Below are positions 2,466 through 46,335 of a stretch of DNA of 64,000 bases, piece by piece. This stretch comes from Eledone cirrhosa. Lineage: Eukaryota. The stretch spans positions 271,250,001 to 271,314,000 of the forward strand of contig OZ024743.1 in the NCBI GenBank assembly GCA_964016885.1, in the 5' to 3' direction. A program made the position numbers and the translations under genes. How positions within the stretch are numbered: position 1 is the first letter of the stretch; the number at the start of each line of letters is the position of its first letter. The notes under the pieces are model-generated. The model searched no databases. It saw only the letters and a program-made list of their open reading frames with translations, and was not told the origin of the DNA.

Positions 2466-4009
2466 CCTTTTATATTGTTACTTAACCAGCTAAAATAGCA
2501 GGCAAATAATAAGAAAGTTAGTTATATTATGAAATCACTTCAAATTCTTGATTATTTGAAAATCATAGGTAATGTTTTTTTATTAGAAATGTAACAAAAT
2601 TGGTTACTTGGATTTAGCTGAAAATATCTAGAAACAGGTTTATTAATTCAAATAGTTTAGTGGTTAACAGATTATTGTGAAAATTTGCAGTATTAGGATA
2701 AAGATTTTAGTTATTAATGTGATCAAGTCATAGTGCTGTTTTGTACATTCAAGAATGTCTTACTAATGTGTTTTTTTTAAACCCAAATGTTTATAGTATC
2801 TTTACTAGGGAACATATTGTGAACATTTGCAGTAAACTAAAGACTTTAATCTTTAATGTGATACAGTCATAGTGTTTGTTTTGTACTTTCCAAGGATGTC
2901 TTACTACAGCAGTTTCATAGGGTACAGAATTTAAGAGTGTAACAATCAATGGTACTGTTCTCCCTATCCAACCAAAACACTAACCAGTGTTATAGTTTAC
3001 AAAATCTATAATTTGAAATGTAAATAACAATGATAATAGCAGGGATTAATCATAGACATTAAGATATTGATAATTGTGTTGCAGTATCCTGGAGGAATTT
3101 ATTAATACCGCAGCCAGCTGAATATCAGTGTCTAAGAGAGAACATTCTACAATGGATCTATCTGCCTGACTGTCTATATGTATAGTGTATGTGTGTATGT
3201 ATATGTATGCATACATGCATATGTATATGTGTGTGTATATATATATACATTTGTGTGTGTATATGTATGTACATATATGTGTGTGTATATATATACATGT
3301 GTGTGTGTATATATATATAGATACAAACATCTATAATATCTGTATATGTGTGTTGAAGTGGGCATCTGCTACTGGTGGGAATTGGGTTGAAAATCAGCAT
3401 GTAGTATGTATATGGTGTGTGTTACTGTGTGTGTAGAAAGGCCAATGAGAGATTCTTAAGAATGCATGAGTTGCTGCCCACTGTAGACGAGTATCTTGGA
3501 GAGCAGTGACTCTAATTAAAAACAATTGAATGAGGCAGACGTGGATTCCATAAGCCATAGTGAAGGTCACCCATCTAGGAAGGCAGTGGCTCTGATTAAA
3601 AATGACAGCACAGGGCAGACATGAACTCTGTAAGCCGTAGTGAAGGCAACCCATCTAGGAGAGTAGACGGTGAATAAAAACTGATATGGGTGAAGAAGAC
3701 CCTTGAATCCAGTAAGACAACTTCTCTAGTGCTCATGATATGAATAATGCACCTAGTCCACACTAACTGAGGTTGTCTGTAAAAGTTCCTCATAGCCTTT
3801 TGTTCTTTACTCAGTCCTGCCTATGGTGCATGGGTAGAAGTAATTGTCACCATTCTATTTCTTATAGCTATTCTAAGTTTGATAATTCTGTCACTTACTC
3901 TACCTTTGTCACTTTATATATACATTTCTCAGCAAGCAGAATACCTACACCACCTACCTCATTATCATTTCCTGCCTAATAAACTTTGTATCTATGTTGT
4001 TTGTCCAGG

Positions 4010-5189: not shown

Positions 5190-5400
5190 TTCTAGTGGAT
5201 TGGTAATATTGATAGACCATCCGGTTATGGCCCTTTATGTTCTGAGTTCAAATCCCGCTGAGGTTAGCTTCGCCTTTTGTCCTTATGGGGTCAATAAAAT
5301 AAAGCATCAGTAATGCACTGGGGTTGATTTAATCGACTTTCCCCTCCCCACAAAATTGCTGGCATTGTGCCCATAGTAGAAATCATTATTATTACTATTA

Positions 5401-5440
<40 letters not shown>
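5190..5440 (+). mobile_element. tRNA-derived SINE, family M (Meta-domain-like), with (ATT)n tail
   Basis: B-box GAGTTCAAATCC; central CTTCGCCTTTTGTCCTTATGGGGTCAATAAAATAAAG; 3' GGCATTGTGCCCATAGTAGAAATCATTATT; many copies in the window. Confidence 0.85.
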
Positions 5441-5441
<1 letters not shown>

Positions 5442-7175
5442 CATCTAGATGAAATGCAGTTCGGGTTTGTGTCAGGAAAAAGTACCACAGACGCTCTTTT
5501 CATTGTACGACAACTACAGGAGAAGTACCTAGCTAAAAGTAAACCCCTATACTTAGCTTTCGTCGACTTGGAGAAGGCCTTCGACAGAGTCCCCCGTTCC
5601 ATTATCTGGTGGGCTCTTAGAAAACTAGGTGTCGATGAATGGCTTGTGAGAGCTATACAAGCCATGTATAAAGAAACAGTCAGCAAGGTTAGAATTAACA
5701 ACGAATATAGTGAAGAGTTTAGTGTAAAAGTTGGTGTTCATCAGGGCTCTGTTCTTAGCCCCCTACTATTTATTATTGCCCTCCAGGCTATAACAGTGGA
5801 GTTCAAGACCGGCTGCCCATGGGAACTCCTATACGCAGATGATCTACGCTCATAGCTGAATCAATGGCCGAGCTAGAGAAGAAATTCCAAACATGGAAGC
5901 ACGGGCTAGAATCAAAAGGCCTTAAAATTAACCTGGCTAAGACTAAAGTTCTAGTTTGTAAGAAAGAAAATAAGGCGGCGGTCCCCTCCAGGAAGTGGCC
6001 ATGCGCAGAGTGTAGGAAAGGCGTAGGTAGAAATTCCATTTTGTGTCCCAAATGCAAAGTTTGGGTTCATAAAAGATGTAGTGGGATCACAGGTAAGCTA
6101 ACTAAGAACATAGATTTTACCTGTGGCCGGTGTTCTGGGGCAATAAGTAGCAGCAAGTGCCCACGAAATACTAGCTCTTTCAACTGCGCAGAGGGTTCTA
6201 TAGAAATAGTGGACAGCTTCCGTTACCTGGGTGAGAAAATCAGCAGTGGGGGAGGGTGCTCTGAAAGTACAGTAGCTAGAGTCAGAACTGGGTGGAAAAA
6301 GTTCAGAGAGCTTATACCACTATTAGCCGCTAAAGGGTTCTCCCTAAAAATGAAAGGCAGGTTGTACGATGCCTGCATACGAACAGCAATGTTGCATGGC
6401 AGTGAGACCTGGGCATTGTGTGCAGAGGATATACGCAGACTAGAGAGAAACGAAGCTTGCATGCTCCGCTGGATGTGTAATAGTAATATACGTGAACGAC
6501 AAAGCATAAACGAACTAAGGAAAAAATTAGAAATAAGAGGGATCAGATGTTGTTTACTAGAGAGAAGGCTACGTTGGTATGGTCACATGATGCGCATGAA
6601 GGACGATAGCTGTATAACAAAGTGCAGGGCAATAAAGATAGACGGTAGCCACGGAATAGGCAGACCCAGAAAAATCTGGGACGAGCTGATAAACTCCGAC
6701 CTCACACACTTACACCTCACCAAGACAATGTCACTGGACCGAGACCTTTGGCGGTACTCAGTAATAGAGAAGACCCGCCTTACCTAAATACAAAGTAAAA
6801 CCTACTACAATCAGTAGGCATCTCTAACAAAATACACCCCCGTCCCACCACCCCCACCCCATCCACACCGCCCCCTTCTATGTAAAGTTATGTTGGTGCC
6901 ACACCATCCAGACCGAAACAAATGAGATCGTGTAGGTGTCACGACAAAAAAACACAGTCCACGCTGTAATGTGGCCGTGTAGGCAACACGGTAAAAACCT
7001 CCCAGACCCACACTGTAAATGTGGTTGGTGTTAGGAAGGGCATCCAACTGTAGAAAACCTGCCAGACAGTCCTATGCGAGCAAGACAATCACTCTTGCCT
7101 CAAGTGGGAAAACCTCCGTCCAAACCCATGCAAGCGTAGAACACGGACGTTAAACGATGAGGATGATGATGATGA
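5440..7175 (+). mobile_element. RTE-clade LINE (family A), 5'-truncated; RT with inserted PHD finger, one frameshift near 5847, 3' UTR and (GAT)n tail
   Basis: [56 protein letters not shown] and GRPRK motifs in ORFs 5367-5855 and 5864-6787. Confidence 0.95.
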
Positions 7176-8834: not shown

Positions 8835-10497
<1,663 letters not shown>

Positions 10498-10499
10498 GT

Positions 10500-11490
10500 T
10501 AGAAAAATATAAAAACAATCTCTTCTCAACATATATATGTATATTAATAACCTCAAATTACCACACTAATAATGGTAAGATAAGCTGATGAGAATAGGTG
10601 CAAAAATGCGATAATGAATGTGTCTAAAAGCGACCATAAGTATGTATATATATGTGAAAATTTATATAAATAAGTAAATATATATATATATGTTTGATGT
10701 GTATAGTTAGATGTAAGTGTATTCATGTATTAAAGTGCTTATATATATATGTATATATATATATATATAGATATAGATATATATGTATATGTATATATAT
10801 ACACATAGACTAGGGTATGTATGTATATATGTGTGTGTCTATACGTGTGTATATAAAGATAAGTTGAGTATAAAAATGTATACACATGAACGCGTATGTA
10901 TGTACATGAATACATGTGTGTATACATATATATGTATGCATGTGTATGTGTATGTAAGTATGAACATGTTACTATGTGAATGTGAGTATATGTATTTTGT
11001 AGAGGTGTGCAAATATGTTTGTGTGTGAATGCGTGGGTGAAAGGATACGTACACTTGAAAGAAAAATTTAAGTCTGAATGTTAATTAAGTGCAAACACAA
11101 AACCAACCACGCATATCTTTACTATCTCTAATCCTTCTATAGATTTAGAAAAATAACCAATAATATATTCTATAAAAATGTCAAAACAACAGATGGGAAT
11201 CTAATTACTCACTACCACCAAAAATTCTCACTGCTATCAAAAAACCACTCCCTCAACTATTCTTCTAACAACTTCACCCCTCCCTCCTAATATTCTCTAT
11301 AAAAACCAAACAGGTCCTCAGTAATATTATTCTGATGAAATGACAGTAAATAATAACATTGAAATATTGAATGTCTGCATAACTAATACTTTGTAGATAG
11401 CAGCTGTTTTCAGGTTATGTAACTGTTATAGAAACACGTGTCAATAAATTCCTTTCAACTAAACCGTATCCATTCAAATCTTTCTATATT
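10500..11490 (+). mobile_element. Non-coding 3' portion of a PLE related to PLE-1
   Basis: Flanked by (TA)n, internal TG/TA microsatellite, ends in a hammerhead and AATAAATTCCTTT tail similar to PLE-1. Confidence 0.6.
11327..11447 (+). ncRNA. Hammerhead ribozyme (type I, expanded stem II)
   Basis: Stem I TTATT/AATAA; CTGATGA 11332-11338; stem II ATGACAGT/ACTGTTAT; GAAA 11431-11434; palindromic stem III ACACGTGT; GUC site at 11440-11442. Confidence 0.8.
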
Positions 11491-11571
<81 letters not shown>

Positions 11572-11616
11572 CGTAAAATAAGAAAATTATAAAATTAACT
11601 TACTTACTAAAAAATC

Positions 11617-11699
11617 ACTTCCAACTAATTAGTTTCTGGAATGGAGTAAATATATTTTCCGAAGAAATTTATACAAAATCATTCCGTCATCAGGAAAGT
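11617..11699 (-). ncRNA. Hammerhead ribozyme (inverted copy of 12447-12529)
   Basis: Reverse complement of the + strand motif. Confidence 0.8.
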
Positions 11700-12446
11700 C
11701 TTTTTCCGTATAGGTCTCCAGGCATAGCGAGGACACTGGAAACTTATTAAAAAAATAATTCAGTGGAATGGAAATAGCGATGCGTGGACTGGATTCCAAG
11801 CCATTGAGAAAATCACTGCCTCTACGTCCGTGGCAAATTCAAAAAGAATCAATCACGTGACATCGAGGTCAATCAGTGGAAAGCGAGTGGTTATTAAGAC
11901 AGCGGCCAGCTTACTACCATAGTAGCAGCAGTCATGGCCAAATATCGCTCGACAAATGAATTGGAGATAATTATAAGGAATTTATATCTAGTAACATTTA
12001 TATACACACAGATGCATATCAATGCTAGCAAATATATAGGTTTTGTCTTATTAACATATTATTGTTCTGCAACCCCATGCATTGGACCACATTGTTAATA
12101 AGACAAAACCTATATATTTGCTAGCATTGATATGCATCTGTGTGTATATAAATGTTACTAGATATAAATTCCTTATAATTATCTCCAATTCATTTGTCGA
12201 GCGATATTTGGCCATGACTGCTACTATGGTAGTAAGCTGGCCGCTGTCTTAATAACCACTCGCTTTCCACTGATTGACCTCGATGTCACGTGATTGATTC
12301 TTTTTGAATTTGCCACGGACGCAGAGGCAGTGATTTTCTCAATGGCTTGGAATCCAGTCCACGCATCGCTATTTCCATTACACTGAATTATTTTTTTAAT
12401 AAGTTTCCAGTGTCCTCGCTATGCCTGGAGACCTATACGGAAAAAG

Positions 12447-12529
12447 ACTTTCCTGATGACGGAATGATTTTGTATAAATTTCTTCGGAAAATATATTTAC
12501 TCCATTCCAGAAACTAATTAGTTGGAAGT
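12447..12529 (+). ncRNA. Hammerhead ribozyme (type I)
   Basis: Stem I ACTTTC/GGAAGT; CTGATGA 12453-12459; stem II GGAATG/CATTCC; GAAA; palindromic stem III ACTAATTAGT; GUU site 12521-12523. Confidence 0.8.
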
Positions 12530-12847
12530 GATTTTTTAGTAAGTAAGTTAATTTTATAATTTTCTTATTTTACGTCTCTCATATTATTGTTCTGCAACCC
12601 CATGCATTGAACCACATTGTTAATAAGACAAAACCTATATATTTGCTAGCATTGATATGCATCTGTGTGTATATAAATGTTACTAGATATAAATTCCTTA
12701 TATATATATATATATATTTTACGTCTCTCATATTATTGTTCTGCAACCCCATGCATTGAACCACATTGTTAATAAGACAAAACCTATATATTTGCTAGCA
12801 TTGATATGCATCTGTGTGTATATAAATGTTACTAGATATAAATTCCT

Positions 12848-13560: not shown

Positions 13561-14801
13561 CATCATCTTCATCATCATCGTTTAACGTCCATTTTCCACG
13601 CTAGCATGGGTCTGGACGGGAATTGTCCCACTTGAGGCAAGATTGGTTGTCTTGCTCGTATAGGACTGTCTGGCAGGTTTTCTGCGGCTGGATGCCCTTC
13701 CTAACACCAACCACATTTACATTGTGGTGGACTGGGAGGTTTTTACCGTGTTACCTACACGGCTACATTACAGCGTGGACTGTGTGTTTTTTTGTCGTGA
13801 CACTTACACAACCTCATTTGTTTCGGACTGGATGTTGTGGTACCAACATAACTTCACATTTAAGGGGGGGTAGGGGGGTATTGTGTTAGAGGTGCCTACT
13901 GACTGTAGGTTTCGCTTTGTACTTAGGCAAGGCGGGTCTTCTGTATAACTGTGTAGCGTCAAAGATCTCGGTCCAGTGACATTGTCTTGGAGAGGTGTAA
14001 GTGTGTGAGGTCGGATTTTATCAAGTCGTCCCAGGTTTTTCTGGGTCTGCCTACTCCGTCGCTACCGTCTATTTTTATCGCCCTGCACTTTTTTATACAG
14101 CTGTCGTCTTTCATGCTCATCACATGACTGTACCAACGTAGTCTTCTCTCGAGTAAACAACATCTGATCCCTCTTATTCCTAATTTCTCCCTTAGTTCGT
14201 TTATGCTTTGCCGTTCACGTATATTACTATTACACATCCAGCAGAGCATGCAAGCTTCGTTCCTCTCCAGTCTGCGTATATCCTCTGCACACAAGGCCCA
14301 TGTCTCACTGCCATGTAACATTGCTGTTTGTATGCAGGCATCATACAACCTGCCTTTCATTTTTAGAGATAACCCTTTAGCGGCCAATAGTGCTATAAGC
14401 TCTCTGAACTTTTTCCATCCCGTTCTGACTGTAGCTACTGTACTTTCAGAGCACCCTCCCCCACTGCTGATTTTCTCACCCAGGTAACGGAAGCTGTCCA
14501 CTATTTCTATAGAACCATCTGTGCAATGGAATGAGCTAGTATTTTGTGGGCACTTGCTGCTATTTATTGCACCAGAGCACCGGCCACATATAAAATCTAT
14601 ATTCTTAGTTAGCTTACCTGTGATCCCACTACATCTTTTATGCACCTATACTTTGCATTTGGGACATAAAATGGAGTTTCTGCCTACTTCTTTCCTACAC
14701 ACTGAGCATGGCCATTTCCCAGATGGGACTGGTGCCCTATTTTCCTTCCTACAAACTAGAACTTTAGTTTTAGACAAGTTAATTTTAAGGCCTTTTGATT
14801 C
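13560..14801 (-). mobile_element. RTE LINE family A copy, 5'-truncated, inserted in (TA)n
   Basis: ORFs 14646-14897 and 13959-14645 closely match the 5864-6787 protein; (CAT)n tail at 13560. Confidence 0.95.
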
Positions 14802-15065
14802 TATATATATAGCTATAAATATAAATATTGCCAGAAATATCAAAAACCTTGCAAAAAGAATATATATATATATATATATACACACAGAGATATCCACGGT
14901 AAGTTGTGGGGTCTAGTCTGCATGAAGAACTCAATGTAATCCATATGTTGAAAATGTTATAGGTTAAAATAAATCCCGGAAAACAATAAAACATTAAAAG
15001 GAAAACAGAGTCATTATATAAGTTAAAACAATGAAATAAAAATTCAAGTCATTAGAAATATACTT

Positions 15066-15207
15066 CACTGCTTTACGATCGTTTCTAGGTGGTGATAATA
15101 CATCGTAACCATACTTCGTTATCGATCTATGTAAGGTTAGTTGCAAAATATCAGATAAGGAAAATATTTACTTACATGTATATCACCAGCTGTTGTCAAA
15201 AGCAATG
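15066..15207 (-). ncRNA. Hammerhead ribozyme with U3-A8 variant core (PLE-2 inverted repeat)
   Basis: Minus strand: CATTGCTT-TTGACAA-C-AGCTGGTGATA ... TATCACCACCT-A-GAAACGATCGTA-AAGCAGTG. Confidence 0.72.
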
Positions 15208-16086: not shown

Positions 16087-17263
16087 ATCATCATCACCGT
16101 TTTACGTCCGTTCTTCCACGCTAGCATGGGTTAGATGGGTTGTCCTGTTGTGGGCAGTGTCTGGTCGGTTGACCATGCCTTGCTCATACAGGAACTGATT
16201 TGGCTTGATTTCTACAGCTGGATGCCCTTCCTAACACCAACCTCATTTACAATGAGTGCTGGGTGCTTTTTCGTGGCGCCTACACGTCCACTTTACAGTG
16301 TGGGCTGGGTGCTTTTTTGCCGTGGCACCTCCACGACCACTTTGCAGTGGGAGGGTGTGGGATCATATTGTCTATATGCTTCAGCTTGTACCCTTGGGAG
16401 GTCGGTACTCTGTATTACTGCGTGACGCCAGAGGTCACAGTCGTGTGTCATCGCCTTGGAGTGGTGTAATTGGGTAAGGTCGGCTTTTATCACCTCATCC
16501 CAGGTCATCTTGGCTCTCCCCACTCCGCTGTTTCCATGGACTTCTAGTGCTCTGCACCTTTTTATGCAGCTGTCATCCTTCATACGCATCACATGTCCAT
16601 ACCAACGCAACCGCCTCTCCTGCACACAGCATTTGATTCCTCTTATGCTCAGTCTCTCTCTCAATTCATTTATGCTTTGTCGTTCACGGATATTACTATT
16701 ACACATCCATCGGAGCATGCAGGCTTCGTTTCTCTCTAATCTACGTAAGTCTTCCACCTTCAGCGCCCAGGTCTCACTACCATGTAACATTGCTGTTCGG
16801 ATACACGCATCATACAGTCTGCCTTTCATTTTGAGCGAGAAGCCTTTTGCAGCTAGCAGTGGTAGTAGTTCCCTGAACTTCTTCCATCCCGTTCTTACCC
16901 TAGTTATTGTACTTTCCGAACACCCACCTCCGTTGCTAATTCGGTCACCTAGGTAGCAGAAGCTGTCTACTGTCTCTACAGAGCCCTCCCAGAGATTGGT
17001 GGTACTTGTTTACTGTGGCTGTTTGCTGCTTGCTGTCCCAGTACAGCTGCTGCATGTGAAGCCTACATTCTTAATTAAGCTTCCTGAGATCCCGCTACAT
17101 CTCTTGTGTACCCATTGTTTGCATTTGGAGCAGAGAATGGAGTTCCTACCTACACCTTTCCTACATACTGAGCAAGGCTGTTTCCATGGGGGGTCTGGGT
17201 TCTGTTTTCTCGTCTACTTACAAGGACCTTAGTCTTTGTCATGTTGACTTTGAGACCCTTTCT
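16087..17263 (-). mobile_element. RTE LINE family B, 5'-truncated, inserted in the TA tract of the PLE-2 inverted arm
   Basis: ORF 16293-16829 ([28 protein letters not shown]); PHD remnants at 17040-17180; (CAT)n tail. Confidence 0.93.
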
Positions 17264-20256: not shown

Positions 20257-20398
20257 CATTACTTTTGACAACAGTTGGTGATATACATGTAAGTAAATAT
20301 TTTCCTTATCTGATATTTTGTAACTAACCTTACATAGATCGATAACGAAGTATGGTTACGATGTATTATCATCACCTAGAAACGATCGTAAAGCAGTG
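20257..20398 (+). ncRNA. Hammerhead ribozyme with U3-A8 variant core (PLE-2 3' end)
   Basis: CATTACTT-TTGACAA-C-AGTTGGTGATA ... TATCATCACCT-A-GAAACGATCGTA-AAGCAGTG. Confidence 0.7.
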
Positions 20399-21622: not shown

Positions 21623-21684
<62 letters not shown>

Positions 21685-30689: not shown

Positions 30690-32192
30690 TTGTTACAAAG
30701 GTAAAGGGGATGCTTTGGAGAGGAGCAATTATAGGGGTATAAAACTGATAGATCAGGTTATGAAAGTGGCAGAAAGGATTTTAGCACAACTAATTAGAGA
30801 AAGGGTCAAACTAGATGAGATGCAGTTTGGTTTGTGCCTGGGAAGAGTACAACAGATGCCCTCTTCTTGGTGAGACAAATGCAAGAGAGGTTCTTAGAGA
30901 AGAATAAGCCACTATACTTAGCCTTTGTTGACCTAGAGAAGGCCTTTGATAGGGTACCCCGATCTGTCATCTAGTGGTCCCTAGGGAAGCTAGGTGTTGA
31001 GGAATGGCTTGTGAGGACAGTGCAAACTTTGTACAGAGGTACTCTCAGTAAAGTCAGGGTAGGAATGGAGTTTAGTGAGGAATTCCAGATACAAGTAGGA
31101 GTACATCAGGGTTCGGTCCTCAGCCCGCTCTTGTTCATTATAGTCCTCCAAGCCATAACAGAGGAGTTTAAGACTGGCTGTCCATGGGAACTTCTCTATG
31201 CTGACGATCTGGTTCTTATAGCAGAATCAGTAGAGGAGCTAGAGAATAAATTCTGGCTATGGAAACAGCAGTTGGAAGAAGAGGACTGAGAGTGAATCTA
31301 GCTAAGACAAAAGTGTTGATGAGTAGAAAAGAGGACAAAACCCTGATTCCGTCAGGGAAATGGCCATGTTCGATATGCAGAAAAAGAACTGGCATAAATT
31401 CTATAAAATGCACACAATGCAGATCCTGGGTACACAAGAGATGTAGCGGGATAGCAGGCAAACTAACAGGTAGGGAGAAATATGTATGCAGTAGATGTAC
31501 AGGGAAATTAGACAGTAGAAGTCGCACTGATAGACACATTTTTCAAATGCAAGAGGGCGCTATAGAAGTGGTGGATAGCTTCCGGTACCTAGGAGATCAG
31601 ATTAGCATGGGAGGAGGGTGTTCCGAGGCCATAGTATCTAGAATAAGGACGGGTTGGAAGAAGTTTAGGGAGCTGCTTCCTCTGTTGATGAAGAAGGGTT
31701 TCTCCCTGCGTACGAAAGGCCGGTTGTATGATGCCTGTGTGAGGAGCGCGATGCTGCATGGTAGTGAGACATGGGCAGCAACTGCAGAGGATATGCGACG
31801 GCTGGAGAGAAATGAGGCAAGCATGCTCCGTTGGATGTTCAGTGTAAATGTGCGTGAACGACCCAGCATAAATGTGTTGAGAGAGAAACTGTGTCTGAGA
31901 GGGATAGAATGTAGTGTACGGGAGAGGAGACTGAGGTGGTATGGACATGTGATGCGCATGGAGGATGACCGATGGGTGAAGAAGTGCCAGGAAATGCCAG
32001 TTGAAGGAAGACGTGGTAGAGGTAGACCACGAAAAACATGGGCGGAGGTGGTGAGAACAGACCTCAGATCATTGAAGCTCACGGTGGAGATGACGAGGGA
32101 CCGTGACGAGTGGAGAGATACTGTGCTGAATAAGACCCATCCCACCCTTGCAAGCAGGGAAAAGCGGACGTAAAATGATGATGATGATGATG
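30690..32192 (+). mobile_element. RTE LINE family C, 5'-truncated, with frameshifts and a stop, PHD in RT, essentially no 3' UTR, (GAT)n tail
   Basis: YKGKGDALERSNYRGIKL, FVDLEKAFD, GVHQGS, YADDL; ORF 31259-32173 ends directly at the terminal CCCACCCTTGCAAGCAGGGAAAAGCGGACGTAAAA(TGA)n. Confidence 0.95.
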
Positions 32193-45440: not shown

Positions 45441-46335
45441 TATATCCTACTGATCTAAGATCAACTCTCACAATTTTAAAGGTAAAATTTTCTTTGGTAA
45501 ATTAAGATAACAGGAGGCACTCAAACAGAGCCTCTCATGTTGCTAAAAAATAAAAACCAAATCTTAAGGGTAAAAAGATAGAATGGTAACGACTCAAATG
45601 CCTTTTACCATGTCTGTATGATTAGAGCTAACGTGAGGCTAAATAGTTTAAGAAGCCATTACATGTTAGTTTTTGGTTCAACATTTTTAGATCCAGTCTT
45701 GCTACTTTTGTCCATGTCTTGTACTGTAGCTTCTTTATGCTGAGAAATTCTGGCACTTCACCCAACAATCAGTGCATTCTTCTCTCGTGCACACATTTGA
45801 TTCCACTTATAATTCAGTTTTTCCCTTTACTCATGCACATTAATATTGCATACCCATTTGATTGTGCTAACTTCATTTTTCATCATATATATATATGATG
45901 AAAAATGAAGTTAGCACAATCAAATGGGTATGCAATATTAATGTGCATGAGTAAAGGGAAAAACTGAATTATAAGTGGAATCAAATGTGTGCACGAGAGA
46001 AGAATGCACTGATTGTTGGGTGAAGTGCCAGAATTTCTCAGCATAAAGAAGCTACAGTACAAGACATGGACAAAAGTAGCAAGACTGGATCTAAAAATGT
46101 TGAACCAAAAACTAACATGTAATGGCTTCTTAAACTATTTAGCCTCACGTTAGCTCTAATCATACAGACATATGGTAAAAGGCATTTGAGTCGTTACCAT
46201 TCTCTTTTTACCCTTAAGATTTGGTTTTTATTTTTTAGCAACATTAGAGGCTCTATGTTTGGTAAATTAAGATAACAGGAGGCACTCAAAGAAAATTTTA
46301 CCTTTAAAATTGTGAGAGTTGATCTTAGATCAGTA

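Follow-up and report, generated by a model that had tools for sequence, protein, structure and literature searches.

The window analysed here is a stretch of 64,000 nucleotides from Eledone cirrhosa. At 11327-11447 it holds a hammerhead motif in which stem II is a 90-nt fold-back. In the reading favoured here, which was judged to have somewhat better than an even chance, the motif is a terminal-repeat hammerhead of a Penelope-like element, stem II is a covarying 90-base hairpin, the predicted cut after C11442 is slow and made by dimers only, and the long arm likely binds the protein of the element. The pairing of hammerheads with Penelope-like elements is known; the long covarying arm is the unusual part. 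The copy is referred to as family A and has the following features.

10496-11491, plus strand: family A Penelope-like element, 5'-truncated copy, aligning at 94% with the 3' end of a full-length element (1,036 columns)
11327-11331, plus strand: 5' strand of stem I (TTATT), able to form five A-U pairs with 11443-11447, from the sequence
11332-11339, plus strand: core CUGAUGA and unpaired A11339, from sequence and alignment
11340-11429, plus strand: expanded stem II, from pair probabilities and covariation
11340-11347/11422-11429, plus strand: basal helix of stem II
11353-11357/11414-11418, plus strand: middle helix of stem II
11358-11360, plus strand: 5' side of the first [AN]U/A[G] 2x1 internal loop, partner 11412-11413, alternatively drawn as an A bulge and a U-G pair
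11370-11372, plus strand: 5' side of the second [AN]U/A[G] 2x1 loop, partner 11399-11400; all 12 aligned rows keep its G, A, T and A, G, C
11372-11379/11392-11399, plus strand: distal helix of stem II, with apical loop 11380-11391
11430-11442, plus strand: unpaired A11430, core GAAA, minimal stem III with the palindrome ACACGTGT at 11434-11441, and predicted cut C11442
11443-11447, plus strand: stem I, 3' strand AATAA, from the sequence

Positions 11332-11442 read CTGATGA, A, the fold-back, A and GAAA-C-ACGT-G-TC, with TTATT before and AATAA after. This is a type I hammerhead core, CUGAUGA...GAAAC-ACGU-GUC, and the sequence bears out C11442 as the cut position named in the original prediction. 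CUGANGA, GAAA and UH are present in order and stem II is a closed hairpin (p 0.73-1.00) whose base has a single extra nucleotide on either side; the extra A on the 3' side precedes GAAA. Residue numbers (C3-G8, U3-A8, A9, G10.1-C11.1) follow the general hammerhead scheme. The G10.1-C11.1 pair was not found throughout, the position being A-U in family A, G-C in family B and U-A in family I. G10.1-C11.1 is the usual hammerhead pair, common and not obligatory. An active hammerhead with U-U at 10.1-11.1 has been reported (PMC3088659). The stem II arms predicted for the two copies of the window were confirmed, ATGACAG/CTGTTAT at 11340-11346/11423-11429 in family A and GTGACA/TGTTAC at 10112-10117/10194-10199 in family B, as were the palindromic stem III loops ACGT and ATAT, which lie within 8-nt palindromes. 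The insert, given before as roughly 75 nt, is 76 nt long. No hammerhead was found by Rfam at gathering score over the whole window, nor at E up to 10 over 9900-11700; the only matches were microRNA models on TA-rich sequence, all below gathering score. The lack of a hammerhead match would be expected because of the 76-nt insertion.

The family A copy at 10496-11491 consists of non-coding 3' UTR and terminal repeat alone, lies between (TA)n tracts and ends 49 nt beyond the predicted cut. A pattern for the 3' half of the motif gave 1,940 matches in the 3.0-Gb genome vs 0 for the reversed control pattern, and the family A hammerhead motif has about 1,900 near-identical genomic copies. The ACGT loop was kept in 96 of 100 family A copies among the matches listed. 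All 29 other top copies that were fetched were identical to the window copy across the hammerhead, which makes its earlier description as the best-preserved hammerhead meaningless. At the full-length loci L091, L093 and L095 two hammerheads in the same orientation, about 3.55 kb apart, flank a frame with reverse transcriptase (RT) and GIY-YIG nuclease; at L091 they stand at 3600 and 7151 with the ORF between them. The ORF starts about 210 nt after the predicted cut. The family B locus L096 has the same layout, two hammerheads flanking the ORF. The motif is found in both terminal repeats of an RT and GIY-YIG element, as in Penelope minimal (dimer-type) hammerheads. [quoted passage not shown] Insertion into (TA)n, a further trait of the clade, was seen at the 3' ends of copies.

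Other repeats were observed in the window. Directly after the family A copy, 11562-11928 and 12218-12584 form inverted arms of 367 nt, 99% complementary and 289 nt apart, and a 150-nt part of this region recurs at 12690 and 12839. LINE fragments with a reverse transcriptase followed by a PHD-like finger lie at 5328-6787, 13905-14803, 16293-17030 and 31250-32173. A satellite of more than 200 overlapping copies begins at 21684; its spacing alternates between 13 and 15 nt and its GC skew is strong. Positions 45610-46171 form a perfect palindrome with 286-nt arms that may be an assembly artefact.

Folding of the family A monomer gave the basal 8-bp helix together with ATAAC/GTTAT and TGTCTGCA/TGTAGATA at p 0.73-1.00, the latter two at p 0.81-1.00. 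The helix GCATAACT/GGTTATGT, proposed earlier for the insert, had a pair probability of 0.00, and forcing it cost 4.7 kcal/mol (from -23.4 to -18.7). Stem I was absent from the monomer (p 0.00) and stem III nearly so (p 0.04). The palindrome ACACGTGT formed a self-duplex of -10.3 kcal/mol, and two molecules folded together reached -58.5 vs -46.8 for two monomers, with the palindrome paired and stem I still absent. Five A-U pairs are possible in the stem I of family A, and 68% of cells were paired across the lineage of families A and B; in the C lineage stem I reaches 9-10 bp. Folded with its flanks, the window copy had a z-score of -1.5 in family A and -0.9 in family B, so that the predicted fold of a single copy is on its own unremarkable. 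For stem II alone the z-score was -3.9 in the family A medoid, -3.0 in family B and near zero (+0.35 and +0.40) in two of nine clusters. Common family variants in a public sequencing run lay in the apical loop (11387 and 11389) or changed G-C to G-U (loss of 11411). Contigs of three public runs were compared with the window and showed known family variants only; two of the runs, with one whole contig each at a depth of about 4, were excluded.

The original prediction had concluded from the A-T to G-C difference between the stems of families A and B that RNA structure is under selection. One such change is insufficient, but the conclusion itself is supported by comparisons between families. Covariation among the top BLAST copies of families A and B was not resolvable, the copies being too alike. 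Because young copies cannot show selection on pairing, other families were collected with core patterns of different spacing, which gave 386, 1,059, 2,102 and 166 matches vs 8, 37, 99 and 2 for the controls. For each pattern the first 100 places were listed and 30 loci fetched, and the sets are small samples from the first contigs.

For the lineage of families A and B, 12 intact representatives were picked from about 40 fetched sequences. Fourteen of 32 pairs changed on both sides (37 cells), which none of 500 shuffles reached (shuffles 7.8); this control ignores relatedness, and the 12 rows amount to about five lineages. Slid controls gave 2-6 two-sided pairs only. On the structure of the window copy 87% of cells paired, and five of the eight basal pairs of stem II covaried. 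RNAalifold, unprompted, returned the same stem II helices, with two-sided change in 9 of 19 pairs. Weaker covariation was observed in a second lineage (F), represented by 12 of 18 fetched members: 10 of 30 pairs were two-sided, a count reached by 25 of 500 shuffles, in 22 cells, reached by none of 500. Here RNAalifold recovered the distal helix and not the basal one, which was then supplied by hand. For the C lineage it missed the basal stem II because the alignment was gapped there, and basal covariation was read by hand from single folds. The frequency of G-U substitutions favours RNA over DNA as the level of selection.

A set of 83 distinct motifs with stem II of at least 75 nt and a C-G or U-A core pair was divided into 22 clusters. 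The medoids of the nine multi-member clusters formed 7.0 of 8 basal pairs with their own arm vs 3.5 with the arm of another cluster. Across all 22 clusters the values were 5.9 and 3.6, the best-pairing of multiple possible cores having been taken, which favours the own-arm figure, mostly in singletons. Pairing of stem I followed the same direction (1.67 vs 0.89 of 3). Stem III loops were palindromic in 14 of the 22 medoids, though the search patterns did not require palindromes. The A.A opposition at the base of stem II, which had been put forward as kept, is present in both window copies but is not conserved: T precedes GAAA in 14 of 100 family A copies among the matches listed, and the nine multi-member medoids show AG, AT, TT, CA, AA, CA, TT, GC and CA.

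An origin of the covariation in common ancestry and AT richness, with the structure unselected, would agree with the weak single-sequence z-scores with flanks, the relatedness of the alignment rows, the absent Rfam match and the second-lineage pair count reached by shuffles. This explanation is highly improbable, given that arms from different families pair at half the own-arm rate, that slid controls collapse and that the flanking UTR cannot be aligned. Comparisons between families support selection for pairing, and this selection acted on active source elements, not on the genomic copy in the window. Uncompensated stem changes, which the original prediction had named as evidence against it, were encountered in part. 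At three separate loci, identical copies show A.C in place of the first stem II pair, the very pair cited, and have a CTGTTAC 3' arm. They had been considered as a compensatory change within family A, which was rejected because the 5' arm is unchanged and the pair broken. Two further loci carry CCGAUGA in the core. Such copies imply either that some source elements do not strictly guard these positions or that the copies moved in trans.

A particular internal loop recurs in the arm. In the alignment of families A and B the G-A-R-U and A-G-C of the [AN]U/A[G] 2x1 loop are fixed in 12 of 12 rows, and the surrounding helices vary. Families A, B, I and F have two such loops each and the C lineage has one; in that lineage the distal module is nearly invariant and the basal stem diverges. 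At least half the members of eight of the nine long-stem clusters have it, compared with four of nine for the next commonest 2x1 loop and five of nine for the best 1x2 loop, in a comparison made post hoc, after the loop had been noticed, and on related families. It was present in none of five shorter clusters, 6 of 13 long singletons and 10 of 40 short singletons. We regard the loop as a lead, a candidate protein-binding feature.

An ordinary minimal Penelope hammerhead might also have had its loop II enlarged by a neutral fold-back or insertion, so that the basal helix alone is needed and the distal arm self-pairs out of the way. Stem II lengths in this genome span 12-116 nt, shuffled sequences fold as well as some of the long clusters, inversions often occur near these elements, and covariation would arise from self-pairing alone. 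Neutral growth is nevertheless improbable in our judgement, since specific unpaired bases of the distal arm are conserved while the flanking helices change, and since the distal module of the C lineage is near-invariant against a diverging basal stem. In the favoured reading the arm has a role of its own. Contact between loop II and stem I is usual in hammerheads; the [AN]U/A[G] loops lie at least 13 bp from the core, too far for this contact. The long stem II could be a separate functional domain in which the RT-endonuclease binds the loop and gates the hammerhead between RNA cutting and copying, a proposal that is tentative and, taken whole, rather doubtful.

Families B and C are represented in the window by the following features.

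8932-10283, plus strand: 5'-truncated Penelope-like element of family B, comprising the ORF's GIY-YIG end and the 3' UTR; its end runs slightly into the TA tract
10104-10212, plus strand: family B hammerhead, 90-nt stem II homologous to that of family A, ATAT loop, weak stem I
20265-20390, plus strand: hammerhead of family C with a stem II of 107 nt, the core variant UUGACAA (U3-A8) and a GATC loop; not part of the original prediction
15074-15199, minus strand: another copy of the family C hammerhead, with a 9-bp stem I

Between families A and B, 257 of 336 RT residues and 35 of 86 fourfold-degenerate sites are identical. Their cores are identical at 16 of 19 positions and their stems II at 50 of 90, the latter only modestly above the neutral 41%. 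Outside the ribozyme the UTRs cannot be aligned, and at the ribozyme the alignment is confined to its 3' end. Family B has about 1,000 candidate copies. Its stem I has one pair directly adjoining the core and is weak in top copies. AGGTATT (10181-10187, in stem II) pairs with AATACCT (10213-10219, after the cut) over 7 bp at p 0.96 and displaces the basal stem II (p 0.03); this predicted helix is possibly an off-switch or a sign of decay. A non-circular permutation using the internal helix of family B was dropped, there being no core after that helix. In family C, C3-G8 of the core is replaced by U3-A8, and all C sub-lineages seen share a mismatch, C.C, at stem position four.

Further hammerhead families with stems II of 12-62 nt were observed at L004, L015, L027, L037, L044, L050, L082 and L097-L126; some have GAAAU and TATATA-type palindromes, and a nuclease frame lies upstream in L015 only. 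No nuclease frame was found upstream of the families with 31-, 40- and 53-nt stems II. L192:390-9301 (G000:C1, ~176,443,900-176,452,800) consists of about 18 tandem units, each 487 nt long, many of which carry a CGCG-loop family hammerhead with a 53-nt stem II; it looks like a non-LTR retrozyme array. The expansion of stem II could not be dated from a nuclease tree, which held nuclease fragments of this genome alone and no short-stem family, and which was mostly unresolved (4 of 17 branches starred).

Cleavage by the family A motif is predicted from its core and fold. An excess of 5' copy junctions at the predicted cut was not found: 5 of 16 matches lacking C11442 were junctions, vs 11 of 25 at a single control position 8 nt further on, where two were local duplications and two seem to come from a single locus; through microhomology, junction positions are uncertain by 1-2 nt. 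None of nine matches altered just after the cut was a copy ending there. Among 68 copies, 36 stop 30-59 nt beyond the cut, 30 continue into the ORF side and two stop at 10-19 nt. Because copies extend past the cut site (~49 nt), we infer that reverse transcription used uncut or re-joined RNA as its template, in line with the report on Anolis.

These copy ends are also what would be seen if the fold were selected and cutting no longer mattered, the hairpin serving the protein of the element as a packaging or priming signal and the core being kept for shape or by inertia. The success of family B with a weak stem I and a competing helix agrees with this, as do the small sets of copies whose first pair or core is broken. 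In Anolis, mutants of the hammerhead retain insertion in vitro, and none of the RNA reads stops at the cut (PMC11167929). Against it, the catalytic nucleotides are fixed across many families (386, 1,059 and 2,102 matches as given above, with 8, 37 and 99 in controls), the U3-A8 swap makes sense for the active fold only, and palindromes are kept despite sequence change. Loss of cutting is considered unlikely. The favoured dimer-cleaving hammerhead itself has evidence against it in the five A-U pairs of stem I, the missing copy-end excess, the extra A before GAAA, the A-U replacing G10.1-C11.1, the copies with A.C in stem II or CCGAUGA in the core, and the weak stem I and competing helix of family B, which yet has about 1,000 candidate copies. 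In the mechanism proposed, a transcript of tandem elements would bring two hammerhead motifs together, their palindromes would pair, and the RNA would be cut, or cut and re-joined; the form copied into DNA would be the uncut or re-joined one. Most speculatively, the [AN]U/A[G] loops may bind the RT-endonuclease protein, assisting or timing cleavage.

Palindromic, dimer-type hammerheads in Penelope-like terminal repeats have been published (PMC4209133), and their dimer cleavage reviewed (PMC6765202). The motif described here resembles the minimal Penelope hammerheads in occurring in each of the two terminal repeats, in its type I topology and in having a short stem I and an unpaired nucleotide after A9 (PMC4209133), as well as in the palindromic loop III, the U3-A8 variant and the predicted dependence on dimers (PMC4209133, PMC6765202). 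It differs from them in that helix II of the minimal type has 6-8 bp, whereas here it is about 90-92 nt long with three helices and conserved internal loops, and in that family A is without G10.1-C11.1 and has the extra nucleotide before GAAA (PMC4209133).

Protein motifs, GIY-YIG and (TA)n targets are shared with the Hydra-clade elements (PMC8557442), among them Hydra-1_Obim of Octopus bimaculoides. N.N opposition at the base of stem II is already present in the Hydra table, for example in ctgatgat...tgaa. In the hammerheads listed there stem II has 3-7 bp, loops are of 3-10 nt and stem III mostly has 3-4 bp; the Octopus hammerhead is short. Stem II is at most 25 nt in that table, compared with about 90-92 nt here and 79-107 nt in eight other clusters, and the elements are under 3 kb, compared with a unit of 3.55 kb here. 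The longest stem II case in the hammerhead table of the same paper, a Selaginella element flagged there as deviating, has a loop of 35 nt. Core halves were searched there 7-17 nt apart, with half cores noted at 35-50 nt, so that hammerheads with spacers of 80-110 nt would be missed. If the arm is a separate protein-binding domain, long-armed hammerheads escape published descriptors, and families scored as ribozyme-less or 'half core' may carry them. No description of 80-110-nt stems II or of the [AN]U/A[G] loop in Penelope hammerheads was found in the literature as available, and Figs S2-S3 of PMC4209133 and the collection of Lunse et al. (RNA Biol 14:1499) may hold longer ones.

The role of the hammerhead in Penelope-like elements is called unclear in PMC8557442. 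As in the Anolis Poseidon element PAc (PMC11167929), copies include sequence 3' of the cut, and neither genomic nor RNA ends are found there. The short stem II of PAc overlaps the start codon, whereas here the ORF begins downstream of the cut, and protein assistance of the hammerhead, shown in PAc (PMC11167929), is only inferred here. The thousands of copies in many families, with the wide range of stem II lengths noted above, form a natural series for finding the parts that are needed, and the covarying long arm with its recurrent loop offers a concrete candidate for the protein contact implied by the Anolis work.
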